Part shown: positions 2,624 through 42,204 of the stretch, one piece after another
Layout of the letters: each line of letters starts with the position of its first letter
How positions within the stretch are numbered: position 1 is the stretch's first letter
Source of the DNA: Candidatus Goldiibacteriota bacterium HGW-Goldbacteria-1
Lineage (GTDB): Bacteria > Oederibacteriota > PGYV01
NCBI GenBank assembly: GCA_002839855.1
Contig: PGYV01000002.1
Span: 203,125 to 267,124 of the forward strand
DNA length: 64,000 nt
Direction of reading: 5' to 3'
Translations under genes and position numbers: made by a program
Notes under the pieces: model-generated
Seen by the model: only the letters and a program-made list of their open reading frames with translations
The model's database searches: none
Told to the model about the DNA's origin: nothing

Positions 2624-3651
2624 AAAATATAACCATAAGGGACGTGGCAAAACTTGCAGGTGTTTCCCACGTTACAGTTTCCAATGTAATAAACGGGCGC
2701 GGCAGAATGTCCGCGGAGACCAAAGAAAAGGTTTTAAAAGCCGTTAAAAAACTTAAATTCTATCCTGATGTCATGGCAAGGACGCTTGCCGGCGGCAGGT
2801 CAAACAATATTGCCCTTATCAGTTCGTACCTGTCATCGCCGTTTGTAATAAATATCCTGTCAGGGGTGGAACGCAGGCAGGCGGAATTAAATAAGTTTGC
2901 CTACCGGCTGGAACATCACAGCACAAGAGGGGCGCTGTCGGTAAAAGAAGACCTGTTAAAAAGTATCCTTTACGGTAAGAAAGCGGATGCTGTTATTACC
3001 GTTACCGTAAAACCAAGCGCTGAACTTGTAAAAGAGTTTTCAAAAAGGGGGATGCCCCTTGTGATTATAGAAAACAAAGCCGCGGGCGCAAGTTCGGTAA
3101 CTGTGGATAATTACAAAGGCGCTTTTATGGCAACGGAACACCTTATAAAATCCGGCAGAAAAAAACTTGCAATTGTTAACGGGCCGGTGGGTTCCAGTGT
3201 TTATGACGAAGAAGAAAACCCCGTGGTATCAGAGCGTTTAAAGGGTTTTAAAGACGCGCTGGAAGAATACAATTTAAAATATGATGACAAGATGTCCTAT
3301 CACGTGGCTTTCTATAACAGGGAAGAAGGCGAAAAAGCCATGCAGCGTATTAATAATACCGGCACCAGGGTGAATGGGATTTTCTGCGCGGCAGGCGATA
3401 CAACGGCTTTAGGGATAATATACCAGTGCAGGCAATATGGGATAAAAATCCCGCAGGACGTAGCGCTTGCCGGTTATGACGATATTTCAATAGCGGGGAT
3501 TATGACGCCGCCTTTGACAACCATAAGGCAGCCGATGGCAGAAATGGGAAAAGCCGCGTTTGATATTGTGATGGCGGCAATGGAAGGAAAAGTTAAAAAA
3601 CCGGCGGATATAGTGCTGCAGCCGGAGCTGATAAAAAGGGAAAGCGCATAG
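2620..3651 (+). CDS. LacI family transcriptional regulator (tandem paralog)
   Basis: HTH 'ITIRDVAKLAGVSHVTVSNVING'. Overlaps the upstream paralog by 4 nt. The C-terminal 'TTIRQPMAEMGKAAFDIVMAA' parallels the upstream gene. Confidence 0.85.
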   Translation: MKNITIRDVAKLAGVSHVTVSNVINGRGRMSAETKEKVLKAVKKLKFYPDVMARTLAGGRSNNIALISSYLSSPFVINILSGVERRQAELNKFAYRLEHHSTRGALSVKEDLLKSILYGKKADAVITVTVKPSAELVKEFSKRGMPLVIIENKAAGASSVTVDNYKGAFMATEHLIKSGRKKLAIVNGPVGSSVYDEEENPVVSERLKGFKDALEEYNLKYDDKMSYHVAFYNREEGEKAMQRINNTGTRVNGIFCAAGDTTALGIIYQCRQYGIKIPQDVALAGYDDISIAGIMTPPLTTIRQPMAEMGKAAFDIVMAAMEGKVKKPADIVLQPELIKRESA

Positions 3652-3888: not shown

Positions 3889-5735
<1,847 letters not shown>

Positions 5736-15686: not shown

Positions 15687-16889
15687 ATGAAGAATATTTT
15701 AATAACGTTTATATTTTTGGTTATGGGCATTATTCCTGCCATTGCTTTGGAAAAACCGAATAATTCCAAGGCTGTAGATGAAAAGATGGAAAAGATAAGG
15801 ACGATGGAAGATAAAACGATTCAAATGAAACTCGGCAGGTCATATATCGCAGAACTGGATGGTATGATTCAAAAAGACGCCAAAAATCCTGAACTTTTCT
15901 ATAAAAAAGGAAATGTTTATTTTTATATAGAGGATGATGCAAACGCCATAAAGTTCTTTTCCGAGGCCATTTCTCTGTCTCCTGCGGTTTCTGTTTATCA
16001 CTTTAAAAAAGGAATATCACTGTATTATCTTAGGGACATTGACGGTTCCATAAAAGAGTTAAAAACATCAGCTGAGTTGGATAAGAAGTGCGAAGAATGT
16101 TTTTATGAGTTGGGCTGCAGATACTCTGAAAAAGATGATTTTGCGAACGCTGAAGCGGCTTTTAAATCGGCGCTCAGGATAAATCCGGAATTTCCGGATG
16201 CTATGTCGAAGCTTGGCGGATTATATGCGGAAAAGAGAATGTATGAAAAAGCACTTCCGTTTTTCAGGGAAATAGTTAAACGCAGGCCTGAAAATGTAAG
16301 TGATTTATATAACCTGGGGGTGGTACTGCAGCAGCTAAGGAATAATAAAGAGGCAGCAGACTGTTTTTCGGCTGTTGTCAAGAAAAACAAAGAAGACTGG
16401 CAGGCGATAGCAAAACTTTTACAGATAAGCCAGTCAGCTGACCGCGATGAAGAAGTGAATAAATATATGAAAATGCTTTTTGCGCTATATAGGGCGGGAA
16501 AAGTAGGTAAGGATTCATTTTGCAGGGAACAAATATGGGCTGGTGATGTACAGATAGTAGTTATGCAGGCCTTTGAGTTAAAAGGCGAATTTGCCAAACC
16601 GTATGTATTTCTTTTGACCGACTCTAAGACAGGCAGGACGCTTTATGAACTTAGTCTGGAGTCGTTTGAAGCAGACACGCAGATTGCCAGAGAGACCGGA
16701 CAGATAAAAAAAGATGAGAGGGTATATACGTATGATTATCATGATACTTCTGACGGTGATTTTCACGGTACTCTTGGGATAGTGAACAAAAAACCGGAAT
16801 ATAAGAAATTAAGGAAAATTATGCTTGGATTTGTTGATAGCAAAAATAAAGGAACACTTAAATTTGTAAGTTCTACCGTTACAAAATGA
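15687..16889 (+). CDS. TPR-repeat protein, secreted
   Basis: Signal peptide 'ILITFIFLVMGIIPAIA'. TPR units ('AEAAFKSALRINPEFPDAMSKLGGLYAEKRMYEKALPFF'). Confidence 0.7.
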   Translation: MKNILITFIFLVMGIIPAIALEKPNNSKAVDEKMEKIRTMEDKTIQMKLGRSYIAELDGMIQKDAKNPELFYKKGNVYFYIEDDANAIKFFSEAISLSPAVSVYHFKKGISLYYLRDIDGSIKELKTSAELDKKCEECFYELGCRYSEKDDFANAEAAFKSALRINPEFPDAMSKLGGLYAEKRMYEKALPFFREIVKRRPENVSDLYNLGVVLQQLRNNKEAADCFSAVVKKNKEDWQAIAKLLQISQSADRDEEVNKYMKMLFALYRAGKVGKDSFCREQIWAGDVQIVVMQAFELKGEFAKPYVFLLTDSKTGRTLYELSLESFEADTQIARETGQIKKDERVYTYDYHDTSDGDFHGTLGIVNKKPEYKKLRKIMLGFVDSKNKGTLKFVSSTVTK

Positions 16890-16936
16890 ATTTAACAGGA
16901 TTGACCCCGAGCTGCTGCTTTTAATAAAAAATACCA

Positions 16937-16965
16937 TTGCCAAATACCTGTTATCGCCATATAAT
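16937..16965 (+). promoter_or_regulatory. sigma70-like promoter TTGCCA-N17-TATAAT plus conserved leader (copy 2)
   Basis: Paralog of 10945-10973. The leader 16966-17075 is about 95 percent identical to 10974-11084 apart from a 1-nt indel. Confidence 0.55.
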
Positions 16966-17140
16966 ACCAATTGTGGAAGGGGTAATATAAAAGGAATCGG
17001 AGGGAAGATGGAATTGGGAGCAAAAATCGTTTTTCGTTTCTGCCTGTTATCAACAACAACTTCACAATAACTTTGTTTATTTTTGCCTATTTTGCGAATC
17101 TAAATTCGATTTCCAAAAGCAAAGTTATGAATAATTACTT

Positions 17141-17181
17141 GGTTTTACTTTCTACTTTCAAGGTCCGGCACGGGTTATTAT
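17141..17181 (+). promoter_or_regulatory. Conserved upstream element (copy 4 of 4) GGTTTTACTTTCTACTTTCAAGGTCCGGCACGGGTTATTAT
   Basis: Lies 68 nt upstream of the GHKL ATPase gene start. Confidence 0.5.
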
Positions 17182-17248
17182 TCATAAATTATGTAAGTTG
17201 TAATAGTAAATAGTTTATATAAAATGGTTTTGTATGGAGGCGGAGTAT

Positions 17249-19660
17249 ATGAGTAACGAAGATTTATTCTGGGAGTTTTATCGTGCGTCTGGAGAAAATG
17301 AAATTCATAATATTCTTGAAAAACACGATTTAATGAATAACAATTCTTTTTGGTTTCCATATGGGGGTAAGACGATTGATGATAGAAATAATTTTGGTAC
17401 GTTTGAAAGTCAGCAAGCAAATCCGATACCCGCTTTAATAGAAAAAATTACAAATTCTATTGACTCGCTATTGATGTTAAAATGCATAGAAAATGGTGTT
17501 GATCCGAAAAGTAAACTAGCTCCTAAGACAATGGAAGAGGCGATAGAAAAATATTTTAACATAAAAGATGGCGATTTTAGTGAGATAGGTAGAAATGTTA
17601 GGCGAAATATAGCTGAAGAAATACAAGTGATAGCTACTGGTGACAAACAAAGTCCTGACATTACTGTATATGATTGCGGCGAAGGTCAGTTACCAGAGAA
17701 GTTTAAAGATACATTTGTTTCGTTGTTGAAAGGAAATAAGAATGATGTACCATTTGTTCAAGGTAAATATAATATGGGTTCAACTGGAGCGGTAATTTTC
17801 TGTGGTAATAAGAAATATCAATTGATTGGGTCGAAATTAAATAAAACTATTGGTAGTTCTGAAAGTCCATTTGGATTTACATTAGTGCGTAGGCATCCAT
17901 TAACGGAAGAAGAAGAAAGCAAATATAAAAGTAGTTGGTATGAATATTTGGTTATTGAAAATGAAATACCAAGCTTTAATTGTGGCGAACTTGATTTAGG
18001 TCTGTATAATAGAAAATTCGAGTGTGGTTCAATTATTAAAATGTTTTCATATGGATTGCCAAGAGGGGCTCGTTCATCTGTGGTATGGGATTTGTGGAGA
18101 GAATTGAATCAGTTTCTATATCATCCAGCACTGCCGTTTCTTGTTTATGAAAAAAGAGGATATGATAATAAAACTCCGTCAAAACTAGTTCTTGGTAATA
18201 AGATCCGGTTAATTCTTGATGAAAGAGACAAAAAAGAAAAAACGATAACTACAAAAATCATTGATGAAAGATTTGGTGAAATTCCAATAGAAGTTCATGT
18301 GTTTAAAAATGATGTGAATCAAACTGAGTTTATCAACGGCAAAGCATTGATTTTTACTGTAAATGGACAGGTTCAGGGTTATGAAAAAAGAAACTTTATT
18401 TCAAGTGAGTTAAATTTCCCTATGTTGAAAGATCATATGCTTGTTAGGGTTGATTGTACAAATATAAGGACTTCTATACGAACGGATTTATTTAAGTCTT
18501 CTAGAGATAGATTGAATGAAAGTGTTTTAACGGAAGAATTTCTTGATAAAATTATAAATGTTTTAAAAGGCAATGAAGAATTAAGGAAAATTAACCAGGA
18601 AAGAAAGAATTCTATTTTACGACAAAATGCAGATGATAAGAAGTTATTTGAAGATATTATAACAAGAATGCCTCTGCAAAATGATTTTATTAAAATGTTT
18701 ACACAGTCAAATGATTTTAATTTTGATCTTAAAAATATAAATAAGAAACATGATAGGACTGATTCGTCTGATGGAAGTGAGAAAACTAAAAAGCCGATTG
18801 AGTCGAAAAGATTTCCTTCGATTTTCAAAGTTCAATTAAAAGATAATAACAATAAAGATAAAATTAAGACAATACCCATAAACGGAAAAGGTGTTATCAA
18901 TTTTGAAACCGATGTTGAAGATGAGTATTTGTTTAGGCCTAAAGATAAAGGCGAACTAAGAATTGGAATATTAAATTATAAAAGCAATAATGCCGACGGT
19001 GGAACGGAAGCAAAGCCAACCAAGATTGAAGAACTATTGGATGTCACTCTTAGCGGACCAACGGATAATGCAATTAAAGCGACTTTTGAACCTAAGGCGA
19101 AATTAAATGTTGGTGATGAAATTCAAATAAGCACTACGCTAACATCTCCTTCGGGGGATTTGGAATGTATTTTCTACATTAAAATTATAGATCCTCAGAA
19201 TTTGCAAGATAATAATTCAAAGAATAAAGACAAAGAAAGTCTTAACCTACCTTTGCCAATAAAAGTATTTGAAAACAAAGACAAAGACGATGATAGGACG
19301 TGGAGTGATTATGGTTGGGATGGCAATGATATTGTAAAGATAATAACTGATAATGAAAATAAAGAAAAAAAATTGATTGAGGGTATAGCGATAAATATGG
19401 ACAGTTTTGTAATCAAAAGATATATTTCTAAAAATAAAGTTATTACTTCAAGTGATCTGGTATTAACAAAGAATAGATACTTCCTTTCTGTTTATTGGCA
19501 TAGTATTTTTCTGTTTAAATTTCTTGAGAATATTTTTAAAGCCGAAGAATATCAAGAATTACCAGAAGATGTTGAGGAGATAGTAGCGCAATTGATGCAG
19601 TTTTATTCAGAATTTTTATTATCTTTTGGTATGTTAGGAGAGAGTTTAAATCAGGATTAA
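17249..19660 (+). CDS. Large (about 800 aa) GHKL/Bergerat-fold ATPase-domain protein with a K/N/D-rich C-terminal region. Candidate defence protein A
   Basis: N-box 'ALIEKITNSIDSL' (E-x3-N-x2-D). G1 box 'ITVYDCGEGQ' (D-x-G-x-G). G2-like 'QGKYNMGSTGAV'. Start chosen after 'GGAGGCGGAGTAT'; the alternative start is 17234. No signal peptide. The gene is AT-rich. Confidence 0.55.
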   Translation: MSNEDLFWEFYRASGENEIHNILEKHDLMNNNSFWFPYGGKTIDDRNNFGTFESQQANPIPALIEKITNSIDSLLMLKCIENGVDPKSKLAPKTMEEAIEKYFNIKDGDFSEIGRNVRRNIAEEIQVIATGDKQSPDITVYDCGEGQLPEKFKDTFVSLLKGNKNDVPFVQGKYNMGSTGAVIFCGNKKYQLIGSKLNKTIGSSESPFGFTLVRRHPLTEEEESKYKSSWYEYLVIENEIPSFNCGELDLGLYNRKFECGSIIKMFSYGLPRGARSSVVWDLWRELNQFLYHPALPFLVYEKRGYDNKTPSKLVLGNKIRLILDERDKKEKTITTKIIDERFGEIPIEVHVFKNDVNQTEFINGKALIFTVNGQVQGYEKRNFISSELNFPMLKDHMLVRVDCTNIRTSIRTDLFKSSRDRLNESVLTEEFLDKIINVLKGNEELRKINQERKNSILRQNADDKKLFEDIITRMPLQNDFIKMFTQSNDFNFDLKNINKKHDRTDSSDGSEKTKKPIESKRFPSIFKVQLKDNNNKDKIKTIPINGKGVINFETDVEDEYLFRPKDKGELRIGILNYKSNNADGGTEAKPTKIEELLDVTLSGPTDNAIKATFEPKAKLNVGDEIQISTTLTSPSGDLECIFYIKIIDPQNLQDNNSKNKDKESLNLPLPIKVFENKDKDDDRTWSDYGWDGNDIVKIITDNENKEKKLIEGIAINMDSFVIKRYISKNKVITSSDLVLTKNRYFLSVYWHSIFLFKFLENIFKAEEYQELPEDVEEIVAQLMQFYSEFLLSFGMLGESLNQD

Positions 19661-19696
19661 TTAATATGGAATCTAAATAAGGAACAGAAAGATAAA

Positions 19697-19726
19697 TTGA
19701 CAGTAGAAATGCACAAAGCTTATAAT
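19697..19726 (+). promoter_or_regulatory. Consensus sigma70 promoter TTGACA-N18-TATAAT upstream of the DGQHR/GIY-YIG gene
   Basis: 'ttgacagtagaaatgcacaaagcttataat' sits in the 237-bp A-B intergenic gap. Confidence 0.55.
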
Positions 19727-19897
19727 TACATTAATGTTTTAGGGAGTAATTATATAGCAATATGACATTCGAAATAACATTAAGAAAGAGTTCTAAAACT
19801 TATTTTTCAAAACGAATAGATCCAAAAGAAAAAATTCTTATTTATCAGATAGAATGTGATTTTATTCGAAAGTATAAAATTTGGAGGTTTATTAAAT

Positions 19898-21415
19898 ATG
19901 GAAAAATTTCATTATCCCGCAATAAGATTAAAACAATTTAATACCGAATTATACCTAACAAGTCTTTCTGCTGAAAGTGTAGCATATTTAGTTAATCAAA
20001 AATCATTAATCGTCGACAAATATCAAAGAGGCGAAGAAGATTCTTATCAAAGGAACGAAGATCATAGTAAGATTAGAGAACTTGCTGACTTTTTAAGATT
20101 ATATAAGAATGATGATATTGTAAAGCCGATTTTGCCAGCATCAATCATCATTAATGTCCCCGACAGTTCTAACCTAACTTTTGATGAAAAAAACGGCCAA
20201 ATTATTCTTGATAAAAAAGCAAAATTGAATATCGTAGATGGGCAGCATCGAGTCAAGGCTGTTTGTAAAGCTTATAGCGATGGAATCGCAGATGATTTCG
20301 AAGTACCAGTTACATTTATCAAAGGGTTAAAACGCATTCATGAAGCGGCTCAGTTTTTAATTATCAACGTTAAACAAAAACAAGTTAGAACCGATTTAAC
20401 CATGACCATATTGCATGAAATGAATGTACAAACGAACCAACTTGCAACGAAATTGAGAAAAATACTTAAAGTAGATGGATGGCAGATTGAAGCGACCGCC
20501 ATCGCTATTGATGTAAATACCAGGCAAAGAAGTCCATGGTTTAATTTAATAATGAGGCCCAATGAATCAAAACAATCATTGAAAGAACTAGGGGTAAAAT
20601 GGGTACCTATCAAACAGGCTTCATTTGTCGATTCACTCAGAAGATTTTGCGCTACAAATACTTCTAAAACGCTCGAGGAAAAGATCGCATTTTTAATTAA
20701 AACATGGAATTATCTTAAAAAAGAATACGCCCCTTCATTTGATTGCGAGACTGGGAATAATTATATGTTAACCAAAGGAACCGCGATAGGGCCAATACAT
20801 ATTTTTATGAGTTTGATGTATTCCATGGAAACCTGTGGTTTGTATGAAAATATCGAAGAAGTAATGACAACGTTTGTAAAAAAATATCCGTTAGAATTCT
20901 GGGAAAAGGGAAGCAAACACGCAGGATCATGGGGCACTTCGCAAAAAGAATATTATACACACGCAAAAGAAATTTCTGAAGTAATGTTTCCGGAATTGTA
21001 TTCTTTTTGGAACTCGGATTTATTAGAACATTATAGAAAAAAAGATTTAGTTGATGATGAAGTTCTTAATAGTATTGAGCATCTAATGGATCCTTTTTCG
21101 CTGAAACCATATACGGAAATAGAAGAATACATTAAAAACGATGTATCTGGTATATATTTATTAATAAATAAAAAACGAAATAAACTGAATATGTATGTTG
21201 GGCAAGCCGAAAGCATAAAGGACAGAGTTGCTGGTCATAATAGAGATTTCCTTGCTTTTAATTTCATCACTGTTAACGGCGAAGATCTAGACACGAGCGA
21301 AGCGCTCGTATATCATTTGATTAACAAAGAGTTTAGAACAAATACAATACATCCTCCTACTAAAAAATGTGAATTTTGCGAACACGATAAAAAACATAAG
21401 TCTAAGAAGAAATAA
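19898..21415 (+). CDS. DndB-like DGQHR-domain (ParB/Srx-fold) protein fused to a C-terminal GIY-YIG nuclease domain. Candidate defence protein B
   Basis: N-terminal 'YPAIRLKQFNTELYLTSLSAESVAYL' and 'KLNIVDGQHRVKAV' (DGQHR motif). C-terminal 'SGIYLLINKKRNKLNMYVGQAESIKDRVAGHNRD' (GIY...YVG...R...H, a GIY-YIG core). Terminal Cys/His cluster 'CEFCEHDKKH'. Start chosen at the ATG after a GGAGG RBS; the ORF-track start is 19856. Confidence 0.6.
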   Translation: MEKFHYPAIRLKQFNTELYLTSLSAESVAYLVNQKSLIVDKYQRGEEDSYQRNEDHSKIRELADFLRLYKNDDIVKPILPASIIINVPDSSNLTFDEKNGQIILDKKAKLNIVDGQHRVKAVCKAYSDGIADDFEVPVTFIKGLKRIHEAAQFLIINVKQKQVRTDLTMTILHEMNVQTNQLATKLRKILKVDGWQIEATAIAIDVNTRQRSPWFNLIMRPNESKQSLKELGVKWVPIKQASFVDSLRRFCATNTSKTLEEKIAFLIKTWNYLKKEYAPSFDCETGNNYMLTKGTAIGPIHIFMSLMYSMETCGLYENIEEVMTTFVKKYPLEFWEKGSKHAGSWGTSQKEYYTHAKEISEVMFPELYSFWNSDLLEHYRKKDLVDDEVLNSIEHLMDPFSLKPYTEIEEYIKNDVSGIYLLINKKRNKLNMYVGQAESIKDRVAGHNRDFLAFNFITVNGEDLDTSEALVYHLINKEFRTNTIHPPTKKCEFCEHDKKHKSKKK

Positions 21416-21562
21416 TTTTCAATCATTAAATTGATCGGATACTATTAACGAAATTACCAGTTAAAGTAATATCTGTGCCGGACATTAAAAAAGAAAGTAA
21501 ATTTATTGTTTGATTTTTCTTACGGAATGCAATCTGGGGCTTTGCGGGGAAGGGTTGGGTTA

Positions 21563-21760
21563 AAAAAGCGTTTTAAGCTATAAACAGTTAAGCAAAAGCA
21601 ATTTGACCTTTTGACCGGGTGGATAGTTAAAAATAATCTACTACCGCGGGCTGAAGACCCGCGTCTACCAGATCCAAACCAATCCTACAAGCAATCGAGA
21701 TGCCTTGCCCTTGCTTCCGTTCCTCTGTGCATCTGTCCCTCCGTCCCTCCGGTCTTACGG
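21563..21760. repeat. Composite intergenic repeat, copy 3. Contains an atpG-3'-end-like segment, the 'aagctataaacagttaagc' module, an inverted REP hairpin and the GTCCCTC module
   Basis: 21541-21602 resembles 10490-10557, including the last codons of atpG. CCGCGGGCTGAAGACCCGCG at 21641-21669 is the reverse complement of the 10639 hairpin. 21711-21760 resembles 3781-3830. Confidence 0.7.
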
Positions 21761-21872
21761 CTTTCATAAAAATCCCTTTACAAAATCAATTTTTTCTGTA
21801 AAATACTCCGAAAGTGTTTTTCTGCGCTAAAACTGTGTTTTATAAACACTATACTTCTTGAAGGAGGAACAG

Positions 21873-25976: not shown

Positions 25977-26113
25977 TTTCACACAAGCGCCCGTAATTCT
26001 GCGATTAAGGCTGTAAAACTTTTCTGAAATTTTTCCTTGAAATCATTTTCAATCCGAATATAATAATAAAAACGGGAATTAAAGGGGAGATGCCAGCAAT
26101 TATAGGAGGGTTT

Positions 26114-27691
26114 ATGAAAAAAAAGCAATTGCTTGTGTTATTATCTGTTATTTTTCTTTTTGTTTTTATATCCTGCAGTAAAAAAGCAAGCCCCACATCT
26201 CCTGTAGCCGAACCTACAACACCTCCCGTTTCAGCTACTGTAACTGAAACTGATTTGGGCACGTTAACAGCAACCCCGACTGTTACAATTACAGCGCCGG
26301 ACGCAACTGTTACCGTTACATCAACCCTTCCGGAAAACACACGGACGGCAACAGCCACATTAACGGCATCACCGACTTTAACCGCAACCGATATCATACT
26401 ATCCTCAACTGCAAGCGCGACTGCCACGGCAACATTAACAGCAACCGATATCATACCGTCCTCAACGCCAAGCGCGACTGCCACGGCAACACTCCCTGAA
26501 AATACCTATACTTCTACCGTGACACAGACCGCGACAGGTACTTTAACGGGGACAATGACAAATACGATGACGCTTACCGATACAATAGAAGAAACACCCA
26601 CTTTAACAGCCACAATTACAATCACGCCCACTGCCACGGTAACCGTCACTTTGACAGCCACTCCTTTGCCTGTATGGGCTGATTTTGGGACAAATCCCGT
26701 AAGTTCAGATATGGGCGGCATGCCTGTTTTAAGAAATTACAGTTCGCAGTTCTACCTTTTATATATTGACGGCGCGCAGGGCGGAAAATTAAGCGCAAAG
26801 TATCATAATGGATTTGCCTGGGGTTCAGCAGGCGACGGAATATCGTCGGATGTGGCGTCCTATCCAAGCATGGAATTAAGTTCCGGCGATATGTACTGCG
26901 CTTACGCGCAGCTTGGCAAAGTATATTTCAAAAGAAAGCTTGCTTTAACCTGGCAGGCGGAATATCAGATATCGGACGGCAATGCAAATTATCCGGATAT
27001 TTTTGTTTACAGCGGCACAAGCCAGTATATATCATACAGGGATGAATACGGGGCTGCTGCGGGAAAAGCTTCGCTTAAGACAGGGCAGGGAAGCGCGTGG
27101 TCGCTTGTCGGCCTTTCGGGATTCAACACGGTTGCGGTAAAAGATACGGACGTTGTTGTAGCATCTGGCGCTGTGCCTTATGTGGCGTGCCAGGAAGAAA
27201 CCGGAAATGTTCTGGGCAAAGTGGAGGTAATGACATACAACGGCGCGTCCTGGTCACAGGTTGGCACCACAATTACCGCGCGCACCGGATGTAATATAGA
27301 TATGGTTTACGGCGGCGGTTATTTATACCTTGCTTACGCCGCGCCGCAGAGCCCTTATCCCGTGCAGGTAATAAGATCAAGCGGGGGTGCATGGACGCCG
27401 GTGGGCGGAATTGTAAATAATGTAGAGGCAGCGGATATATCCCTTTCGTATGATGTATATCAGGGAACCATTAATGTGGCCTTTACGGATGTTTCATCTT
27501 CCAATTCAGGCAAGGCGTTTGCATGGAACGGCGTTTCATGGAACCAGATAGGCGGCATATTCAATGATAATATTAGCACCAGCAGCGCAATTTTCCCGTC
27601 GCTTAATGTTTATAACGGAGTTCCGTATGTGGCCTTTAAGGATACAGGAACCCTGCATAACGGGAAGATTGTGACAAGAGTATACCGATAG
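26114..27691 (+). CDS. Secreted lipoprotein with a Thr-rich tandem-repeat linker and a C-terminal roughly 330-aa domain of unknown function
   Basis: Signal 'LLVLLSVIFLFVFISC'. The roughly 60-nt tandem DNA repeat 'gcgactgccacggcaacattaacagcaaccgatatcata..tcctcaac' occurs twice. The antisense ORFs 26005..26484 and 26506..26721 are artefacts of the repeat. Confidence 0.6.
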   Translation: MKKKQLLVLLSVIFLFVFISCSKKASPTSPVAEPTTPPVSATVTETDLGTLTATPTVTITAPDATVTVTSTLPENTRTATATLTASPTLTATDIILSSTASATATATLTATDIIPSSTPSATATATLPENTYTSTVTQTATGTLTGTMTNTMTLTDTIEETPTLTATITITPTATVTVTLTATPLPVWADFGTNPVSSDMGGMPVLRNYSSQFYLLYIDGAQGGKLSAKYHNGFAWGSAGDGISSDVASYPSMELSSGDMYCAYAQLGKVYFKRKLALTWQAEYQISDGNANYPDIFVYSGTSQYISYRDEYGAAAGKASLKTGQGSAWSLVGLSGFNTVAVKDTDVVVASGAVPYVACQEETGNVLGKVEVMTYNGASWSQVGTTITARTGCNIDMVYGGGYLYLAYAAPQSPYPVQVIRSSGGAWTPVGGIVNNVEAADISLSYDVYQGTINVAFTDVSSSNSGKAFAWNGVSWNQIGGIFNDNISTSSAIFPSLNVYNGVPYVAFKDTGTLHNGKIVTRVYR

Positions 27692-42175: not shown

Positions 42176-42204
42176 TTGACAACACAAAGGCATAGTTTTA
42201 TAAT
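42176..42204 (+). promoter_or_regulatory. Consensus sigma70 promoter TTGACA-N17-TATAAT upstream of the yceD-rpmF-fab cluster
   Basis: 'ttgacaacacaaaggcatagttttataat'. Confidence 0.55.

Follow-up and report, generated by a model that had tools for sequence, protein, structure and literature searches.

A DGQHR-GIY-YIG fusion protein from an uncultured Goldbacteria genome as a candidate single-gene, nucleotide-regulated defence nuclease

Fusions of a ParB-like nucleoside triphosphatase (NTPase) with a nuclease, such as GmrSD, BrxU and SspE, form a recognised class of restriction-type defence enzymes, and those characterised all pair a DUF262 domain with an HNH-type nuclease. Of the DGQHR branch, only two puzzling accessory proteins, DndB and DpdB, are known. 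The subject here is a gene, gene B, in which a module of that DGQHR branch is followed within one polypeptide by a GIY-YIG domain. It lies in a stretch of 64,000 nucleotides (nt), the window, from contig PGYV01000002.1 (positions 203,125 to 267,124, forward strand) of Candidatus Goldiibacteriota bacterium HGW-Goldbacteria-1. Largely by analogy, and with a probability that we would put at roughly 0.6, gene B would specify a self-contained, nucleotide-regulated DNA endonuclease directed against foreign DNA, and it is a candidate new single-gene defence system.

Several properties of the described relatives are pertinent. The QR, DGQ(Q/H)R and FxxxN motifs are common to the DGQHR family and the GmrS domain (PMC4619093). 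A DGQQR motif is present in DpdB, an ATPase stimulated by DNA, which dimerises with its helical domains around a tunnel of DNA width, and SspE needs its own DGQQR motif, which is analogous to the ParB nucleotide-binding motif, for NTPase activity (PMC10164549). DndB has been reported to be a transcriptional regulator, an ATP-modulated repressor. As to GIY-YIG enzymes, CMoRE/PD-T4-3 is a single-gene Type IV enzyme for DNA containing 5-hydroxymethylcytosine (5hmC) or glucosyl-5hmC (PDB 9u75; PMC12923530). According to Makarova et al., the fusion partners of ParB-like COG1479 are HNH, PD-(D/E)xK and HEPN, with GIY-YIG not among them, and a full-text search of the literature found no description of DGQHR or DndB fused to, or in an operon with, GIY-YIG.

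Gene B occupies an open reading frame (ORF) that spans 19856-21415 of the forward strand of the window, and over its full length its product is 100% identical to the NCBI hypothetical protein CVV21_02475 (Candidatus Goldiibacteriota bacterium HGW-Goldbacteria-1). The features of the gene and its leader are these:

19697..19726, + strand: sigma-70-type promoter-like site, TTGACA-N18-TATAAT, a 12/12 match, 172 nt upstream of the gene B start codon
19883..19887, + strand: GGAGG ribosome-binding site, 10 nt before the gene B ATG at 19898, read directly from the sequence
19898..21415, + strand: gene B coding sequence, DGQHR-GIY-YIG fusion protein, ATG start, 505 amino acids (aa), TAA stop
19898..20332, + strand: N-terminal ParB/Srx-fold domain (residues ~1-145), predicted nucleoside triphosphate (NTP)-binding module, with YQR at 20045-20053 and DGQHR at 20237-20251
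20333..21097, + strand: helical domain (residues ~146-400), common to stand-alone DGQHR, DpdB and DndB proteins, mostly helical in the model
21140..21352, + strand: GIY-YIG nuclease domain (residues 415-485), with GIY at 418-420, YVG at 433-435, R443, H447, E468 and N482
21350..21379, + strand: C-terminal tail, H485-P-P ... C491-x-x-C494

That gene B belongs to the DGQHR domain family (TIGR03187/PF14072, of the ParB/Srx superfamily) is solid. The NCBIfam DGQHR model, TIGR03187, scores 97.6 bits over residues 8-298 against a cutoff of 58.85, and Pfam DndB (PF14072) scores 59.2 bits against 29.1. The signature motifs of the family, Y50-Q51-R52, D114-G-Q-H-R118 and F153-L-I-I-N157, are invariant or at least 90% conserved, the last of them (FxxxN, 20354-20368) being held by an invariant EAAQFLIINVKQKxVR helix of the helical domain. 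The PADLOC profile for DpdB aligns with residues 2-341, and all that PADLOC offers for gene B (DpdB, DndB, PDC-S14 and UzuA) is at the level of domain matches. Its closest non-fused relatives are generic ‘DGQHR domain-containing proteins’. The N-terminal domain is predicted to have a ParB/Srx fold; evidence on folds comes here from predicted models, because PDB sequence searches with full-length, N-terminal and C-terminal profiles gave no significant match, the best being UvrC (E 0.12) and a DUF262 protein (E 0.46). In the alignment with the latter, YQR is paired with YQR and DGQHR with DGQQR. The motifs that SspE and DpdB require have intact equivalents in gene B, and by analogy to these two and to GmrSD it may be NTP dependent. 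Similarly, if what is described for DpdB (PMC10164549) can be carried over, the helical domain would contribute DNA binding and dimerisation. Pfam, PADLOC and NCBIfam profile scans of gene B detected no SRA, YTH or PD-T4-3-like modification-reader domain.

The second module contains the string GIYLLINKKRNKLNMYVGQA at residues 418-437, with R443 and H447 downstream. From the copy in the window alone the GIY-YIG assignment is marginal, since Pfam GIY-YIG (PF01541) gives 19.3 bits against a gathering score of 22.6 and only the first half of the model is covered. Its homologues give the assignment more substance: 12 of the 15 aligned members (gene B plus 14 homologues) match the Pfam model at E<0.1, with a best E of 3e-6, and the homologue at one of the loci collected from other genomes (the L numbers below), L023, reaches 22.8 bits. 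The predicted model of the domain has the beta-beta-alpha-beta-alpha fold, its top structural matches are homing endonucleases and UvrC, and a hidden Markov model alignment sets its GCY, YVG and R against their counterparts in UvrC 1yd6. In an alignment of 34 sequences reaching 22% identity, Y420, L422, Y433, G435, R443, E468, H473, C491 and C494 are invariant, and conservation is at least 90% at G418, H447, N482, H485 and P486 and, in the other module, at F153/N157, YQR and the DGQHR pentapeptide, a pattern that speaks for selection on both modules. The spacing within the catalytic set (Tyr-x12-Tyr-x-Gly, then Arg at +10, His at +4, and Glu and Asn 14 residues apart) matches that of the canonical set of I-TevI and UvrC. 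Catalytic residues that are all invariant or nearly so argue for an active GIY-YIG nuclease, and the domain in gene B is apparently active. H473 and the HPP...CxxC tail may form a zinc-binding site. A word-indexed search with the C-terminal domain alone returned only three matches, one of them the amber-split copy of L022, and found no other architectures with the GIY-YIG-HPP-CxxC module. The sequence-only reading that preceded this analysis had envisaged DGQHR and GIY-YIG in a single polypeptide, which is borne out; its grounds for refutation, a C-terminal region without the GIY-YIG fold or the catalytic Arg and Glu and an N-terminal domain without a ParB/Srx fold, do not apply.

How widespread is such a protein? 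A database of 5.8 billion proteins yielded 15 homologues of equal length and 38-52% identity, and a HMMER pass over 1.84 billion cluster representatives enlarged the fusion family to ~25 clusters at 50% identity, with identity to gene B down to 22%. Below the fusions in the HMMER hit list come stand-alone DGQHR proteins of ~360 aa that match only profile positions 7-367, and generic DGQHR proteins account for 2014 matches in that pass. Fusion homologues were found in bacteria and in archaeal metagenome-assembled genomes (MAGs; Bilamarchaeaceae, Thermoplasmata). Rare as it is, the family has so far been met only in uncultured lineages (Goldbacteria and archaeal MAGs), and neither the full-length fusion nor close relatives of it are present in the viral contigs, phage genomes and plasmid records searched (the plasmids by tblastn).

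Beyond the fusion, the two modules are also found as neighbouring genes. On the Sinorhizobium mexicanum replicon pEmeITTGR7b the genes for a ‘DGQHR domain-containing protein’ of 452 aa and, after it, a ‘GIY-YIG nuclease family protein’ of 112 aa overlap by 4 nt, and the pair (WP_180942147.1 and WP_180942148.1) adjoins a 3'-5' exonuclease gene and one for a 1334-aa hypothetical protein. In Cupriavidus necator, Rhizobium sp. WSM1274 and S. fredii, too, tblastn places the two parts end to end on a replicon, with identities to the S. mexicanum proteins of 58-91% for the DGQHR parts and 46-79% for the GIY-YIG parts, so that the split form stands at four replicons, two from Sinorhizobium and one each from Rhizobium and Cupriavidus:

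L046, 6749-8442: split DGQHR and GIY-YIG pair (4-nt overlap)
L048, 4980-6445: split DGQHR and GIY-YIG pair
L050, 3746-5460: split DGQHR and GIY-YIG pair
L051, 3749-5442: split DGQHR and GIY-YIG pair

Compared with other stand-alone DGQHR proteins (1e-10 to 1e-15), the fusions are the better match for the split DGQHR protein (E about 1e-23), and what the split GIY-YIG protein specifically picks out is the C-terminal domain of a fusion (L029, E 1.7e-6). Such a Rosetta-stone relation rules out an assembly artefact as the origin of the fusion, and it supports a functional link between the DGQHR and GIY-YIG modules. The covalent linkage to which the sequence-only reading drew attention is therefore real, but the pairing is not peculiar to it, being found as well in abutting or overlapping gene pairs on plasmids. 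The split pair has both modules in the order of gene B; it differs in being two polypeptides with ~27% identity to gene B, in an N-terminal extension of ~80 aa on its DGQHR protein and in a GIY-YIG protein without the HPP...CxxC tail, and it is itself uncharacterised.

DGQHR proteins that stand alone were met on other mobile elements. One is encoded by a filamentous Pf-type phage, Pseudomonas phage PfAC19 (L052 3992-4996), beside a repressor gene, and another by a small Acinetobacter plasmid (L047 3900-5051), directly after a BglII/BstYI restriction-modification (RM) system. From phage and plasmid copies of this kind it follows that mobile elements commonly carry DGQHR modules away from any dnd or dpd cluster, and the earlier supposition that such domains are normally stand-alone regulators in DNA-modification islands such as dnd and dpd is overstated, all the more with the number of generic DGQHR proteins given above.

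The company that the fusion keeps in other genomes is that of typical defence islands. Its neighbours include a Type III-like RM system (L001 and L002, with DpnI too in L001); an EcoRI-type methylase, GmrSD_N-HNH, DUF4917/SIR2-like and nSTAND3 (L003); MvaI/BcnI RM (L014); BsoBI RM and Schlafen AlbA_2 (L034); Mrr (L013); an HmaA-like helicase and a DUF1156 methylase (L026); LmuB-like SMC ATPases (L020, L023, L032 and L033); and, in L030, a phage terminase. All-against-all clustering of the flanking ORFs disclosed no neighbour common to several lineages. The exception is within one tight lineage (at least 83% identical: L018, L019, L023-L025, L027, L033 and L035), where the fusion gene sits between NurA-like and HerA-like genes and the ends of the three abut or overlap. 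The larger cluster there (L023 1527-11830) comprises an N6/N4 methyltransferase-SNase, DruA, an LmuB/PbeC-like ABC ATPase, Hjc-like, NurA, the fusion, HerA and MjaI; some copies in the lineage have internal deletions, with a DruA-NurA chimaera in L025 and L027. The NurA-fusion-HerA cluster may be a multi-gene system. In L020 (5364-9440) the genes for an LmuB-like SMC ATPase (797 aa), an 81-aa ORF without a family match, and the fusion overlap serially, an arrangement that recalls DndD-DndE-DndB triads or Lamassu systems.

In the window, genes B and A, the latter being the gene upstream on the same strand, lie in an island (16890-21857) with a GC content of 0.32 against 0.42 in the flanks, a contrast that we count as support for horizontal acquisition. 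The flanks, identified by reading translations, are of housekeeping type, with TPR proteins upstream and an H+-pyrophosphatase and YchF downstream. Reading of the translations in the window found no dnd or dpd genes flanking gene B and no adjacent methyltransferase; the 64-kb window has no tRNA genes, and an Rfam scan of the island gave no matches. At the island edges there is an imperfect 18-nt direct repeat (16/18), CCGTTACAAAATGAATTT at 16876-16893 and CCTTTACAAAATCAATTT at 21775-21792. It is not claimed as an att site, as by a rough estimate such a repeat is at chance level where the sequence is AT-rich. Among the ORFs nearby no integrase gene was noticed. Further downstream a 533-aa ORF (26090-27691, +) has a signal-peptide-like start followed by a long N-terminal stretch of low complexity in which Thr, Ala and Pro abound (TATATLTA-like repeats), and a long antisense ORF lies opposite it.

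The promoter-like site ahead of gene B is one of two perfect matches in the window where 0.03 would be expected from shuffles, and the proposal that it is a promoter, made from the sequence beforehand, is upheld to the extent that it is a putative one. The other perfect match, TTGACA-N17-TATAAT at 42176-42204 (+), is inside a GC dip (~0.36, 42-43 kb). In the long 5' leader of gene B there is a lysine-rich 59-aa ORF (19762-19941, +) that overlaps the start of gene B by 44 nt. As a conserved upstream partner it was considered and rejected: it has no PHROG or family match, and close homologues of gene B leave no room for it. A conserved small upstream partner of another kind is likewise rejected, the ORFs upstream of the fusion in L001 and L004 being unrelated.

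What would such a protein do? By analogy with DpdB, SspE and ParB, a dimer of the DGQHR module would bind to DNA, with NTP binding and hydrolysis as its switch. The GIY-YIG domain would then make the cut and, with two per dimer, a double-strand break is conceivable. Gene B would act from its own promoter and ribosome-binding site, with no fixed partner and no functional tie to gene A. Since no methyltransferase, immunity gene or other partner is consistently linked to the fusion, the simplest route to sparing the host is a Type IV-like logic. That gene B cuts only DNA bearing a mark absent from the host is nevertheless a tentative suggestion, drawn from the analogous systems. Just as speculative is a broader proposal in which the DGQHR-GIY-YIG pairing, fused or split, would be an unrecognised anti-phage and anti-plasmid defence family of bacteria and archaea whose ParB-like, nucleotide-gated clamp loads on foreign DNA and licenses the GIY-YIG nuclease. 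Discrimination might there come not from the sensing of modifications but from NTP-gated loading at DNA ends or structures, or from cooperation with NurA/HerA or SMC-like ATPases (L023, L020).

Three considerations weigh against a self-contained restriction endonuclease. First, the overlapping operons, both that of the DruA...NurA-fusion-HerA lineage and that of L020, mean that in some settings the protein may work with partners. Second, with DndB being a regulator, a DGQHR domain does not by itself imply restriction. Third, in 3 of ~30 loci the fusion gene is disrupted: there are frameshifted copies in L005/L015 (about 3486-3534) and L034 (about 3913-3980), and the L022 copy has an in-frame TAG (1927-1929) at the conserved G(T/S)SQ position, which splits the gene near the boundary between the domains. 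These copies may be pseudogenes or assembly errors.

Damaged copies would also fit a gene that is costly to its carrier, and bring to mind a toxic effector of the abortive-infection type, with a nuclease held off, for instance by bound NTP, until infection, by upsetting nucleotide pools or giving rise to aberrant DNA, releases indiscriminate degradation of DNA and no reading of modifications is involved. For ParB/Srx proteins of conflict systems a role as nucleotide-regulated nickases or as degraders of nucleotides has been put forward (PMC10853773, PMC12839542), and the lack of a detected modification-reader domain in gene B would accord with this. A conserved antitoxin or immunity partner is missing, however, and the ParB-like nuclease fusions to which gene B is analogous, GmrSD/BrxU and SspE, tell DNA apart by its modification; we regard an abortive-infection role as rather unlikely.

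A purpose other than immunity, either that of a selfish, homing-like mobile nuclease or of a DNA-repair nuclease comparable to UvrC or Slx1, is improbable. Homing endonucleases and UvrC, which head the structural matches, are the best-known bearers of the GIY-YIG fold, the island was horizontally acquired and one homologue adjoins a phage terminase gene. Yet gene B is outside any intron, intein or other gene, and its domain order is opposite to that of I-TevI-type enzymes. Moreover, close relatives are absent from the viral, phage and plasmid sequences searched, and the neighbours are overwhelmingly defence genes.

Might genes A and B instead constitute a two-gene system, with a GHKL ATPase that senses or remodels DNA and hands it to the nuclease? 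MORC/GHKL ATPases are known components of restriction-like systems, and the two genes are adjacent, on one strand and in one low-GC island. Gene A (17234-19660, +; 808 aa) belongs to an uncharacterised family of more than 1600 homologues of ~800 aa, some members of which reach the Pfam HATPase_c_3 (GHKL) threshold near the N-terminus, although gene A itself has no PADLOC, NCBIfam, PHROG or PDB sequence match. The comparative context largely refutes a joint system, and it now seems very improbable. A gap of 237 nt containing the perfect promoter match separates the two genes, no gene-A homologue is present at the ~30 other loci that carry the fusion, and no DGQHR gene is present at the three gene-A homologue loci sampled (two distinct neighbourhoods). 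In those neighbourhoods it is a 234-aa unknown protein or a KAP NTPase that lies downstream. Gene-A homologues there have, in addition, a small upstream ORF of their own, conserved at 70-76 aa (L007 7773-7985 and L009 7767-7997; 43% identity, E 1e-14), which is missing before gene A of the window (16890-17233). The independence of gene B from gene A, which had been suggested on the strength of the intervening promoter, is thus supported by comparison; sited as it is in variable regions, gene A may be a defence gene in its own right.

Least probable of all is that gene B is an accessory or regulator of a DNA-modification pathway after the fashion of DndB or DpdB, its GIY-YIG domain being inactive or a mere DNA-binding appendage: DpdB and DndB are the nearest named profiles, the one an ATPase that helps insert preQ0 into DNA and the other the repressor referred to above, but the scores are far under the equivalog cutoffs, the flanks lack dnd and dpd genes, and the GIY-YIG catalytic residues are all invariant or nearly so.

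If the self-contained endonuclease reading is correct, there is a practical side to it. DNA cleavage by gene B would provide a convenient read-out for DGQHR recognition and nucleotide control and, were the enzyme to be modification dependent, it could be a reagent for detecting DNA modifications, as has been proposed for CMoRE. With a family so rare, and so far seen only in uncultured lineages, the impact is likely to be specialist rather than broad.

Where then does gene B stand in relation to known systems? With DpdB and DndB it has a domain family in common over ~340-370 residues, namely a ParB fold plus a helical domain. The label ‘DndB-type’, applied to it by the sequence-only reading, fails at the level of the strict profiles: gene B scores 33.4 bits where 328 are required for DndB (TIGR03233), with no dndBCDE context, and 53.6 where 300 are required for DpdB (NF041060), with no dpdA/dpdC context. 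Both of these proteins are without the GIY-YIG nuclease of gene B, and DpdB has no endonuclease activity (PMC10164549). The Type II GIY-YIG enzymes Eco29kI, Cfr42I and Hpy188I are small and sequence-specific and have a cognate methyltransferase, whereas in the window no methyltransferase adjoins gene B, which carries a DGQHR module of 400 residues. In CMoRE/PD-T4-3 the GIY-YIG domain is N-terminal, the sensor is unrelated to ParB/DGQHR and there is no NTPase module. GmrSD, BrxU and SspE, which combine a DUF262 ParB-like NTPase with a DUF1524 HNH-type nuclease and are Type IV or phosphorothioate-sensing, have a likeness to gene B that is structural only: the nuclease of gene B is GIY-YIG, GmrSD_N (PF03235) scores 13.5 bits against 33.2 and there is no DUF1524 or HNH match. 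In functional terms gene B looks like a GmrSD, BrxU or SspE in which the HNH-type nuclease has given way to GIY-YIG and DUF262 to its DGQHR cousin, an analogue of these enzymes and not a member of their family. Gene B is not categorically new, and it is a reasonable candidate for experimental follow-up.

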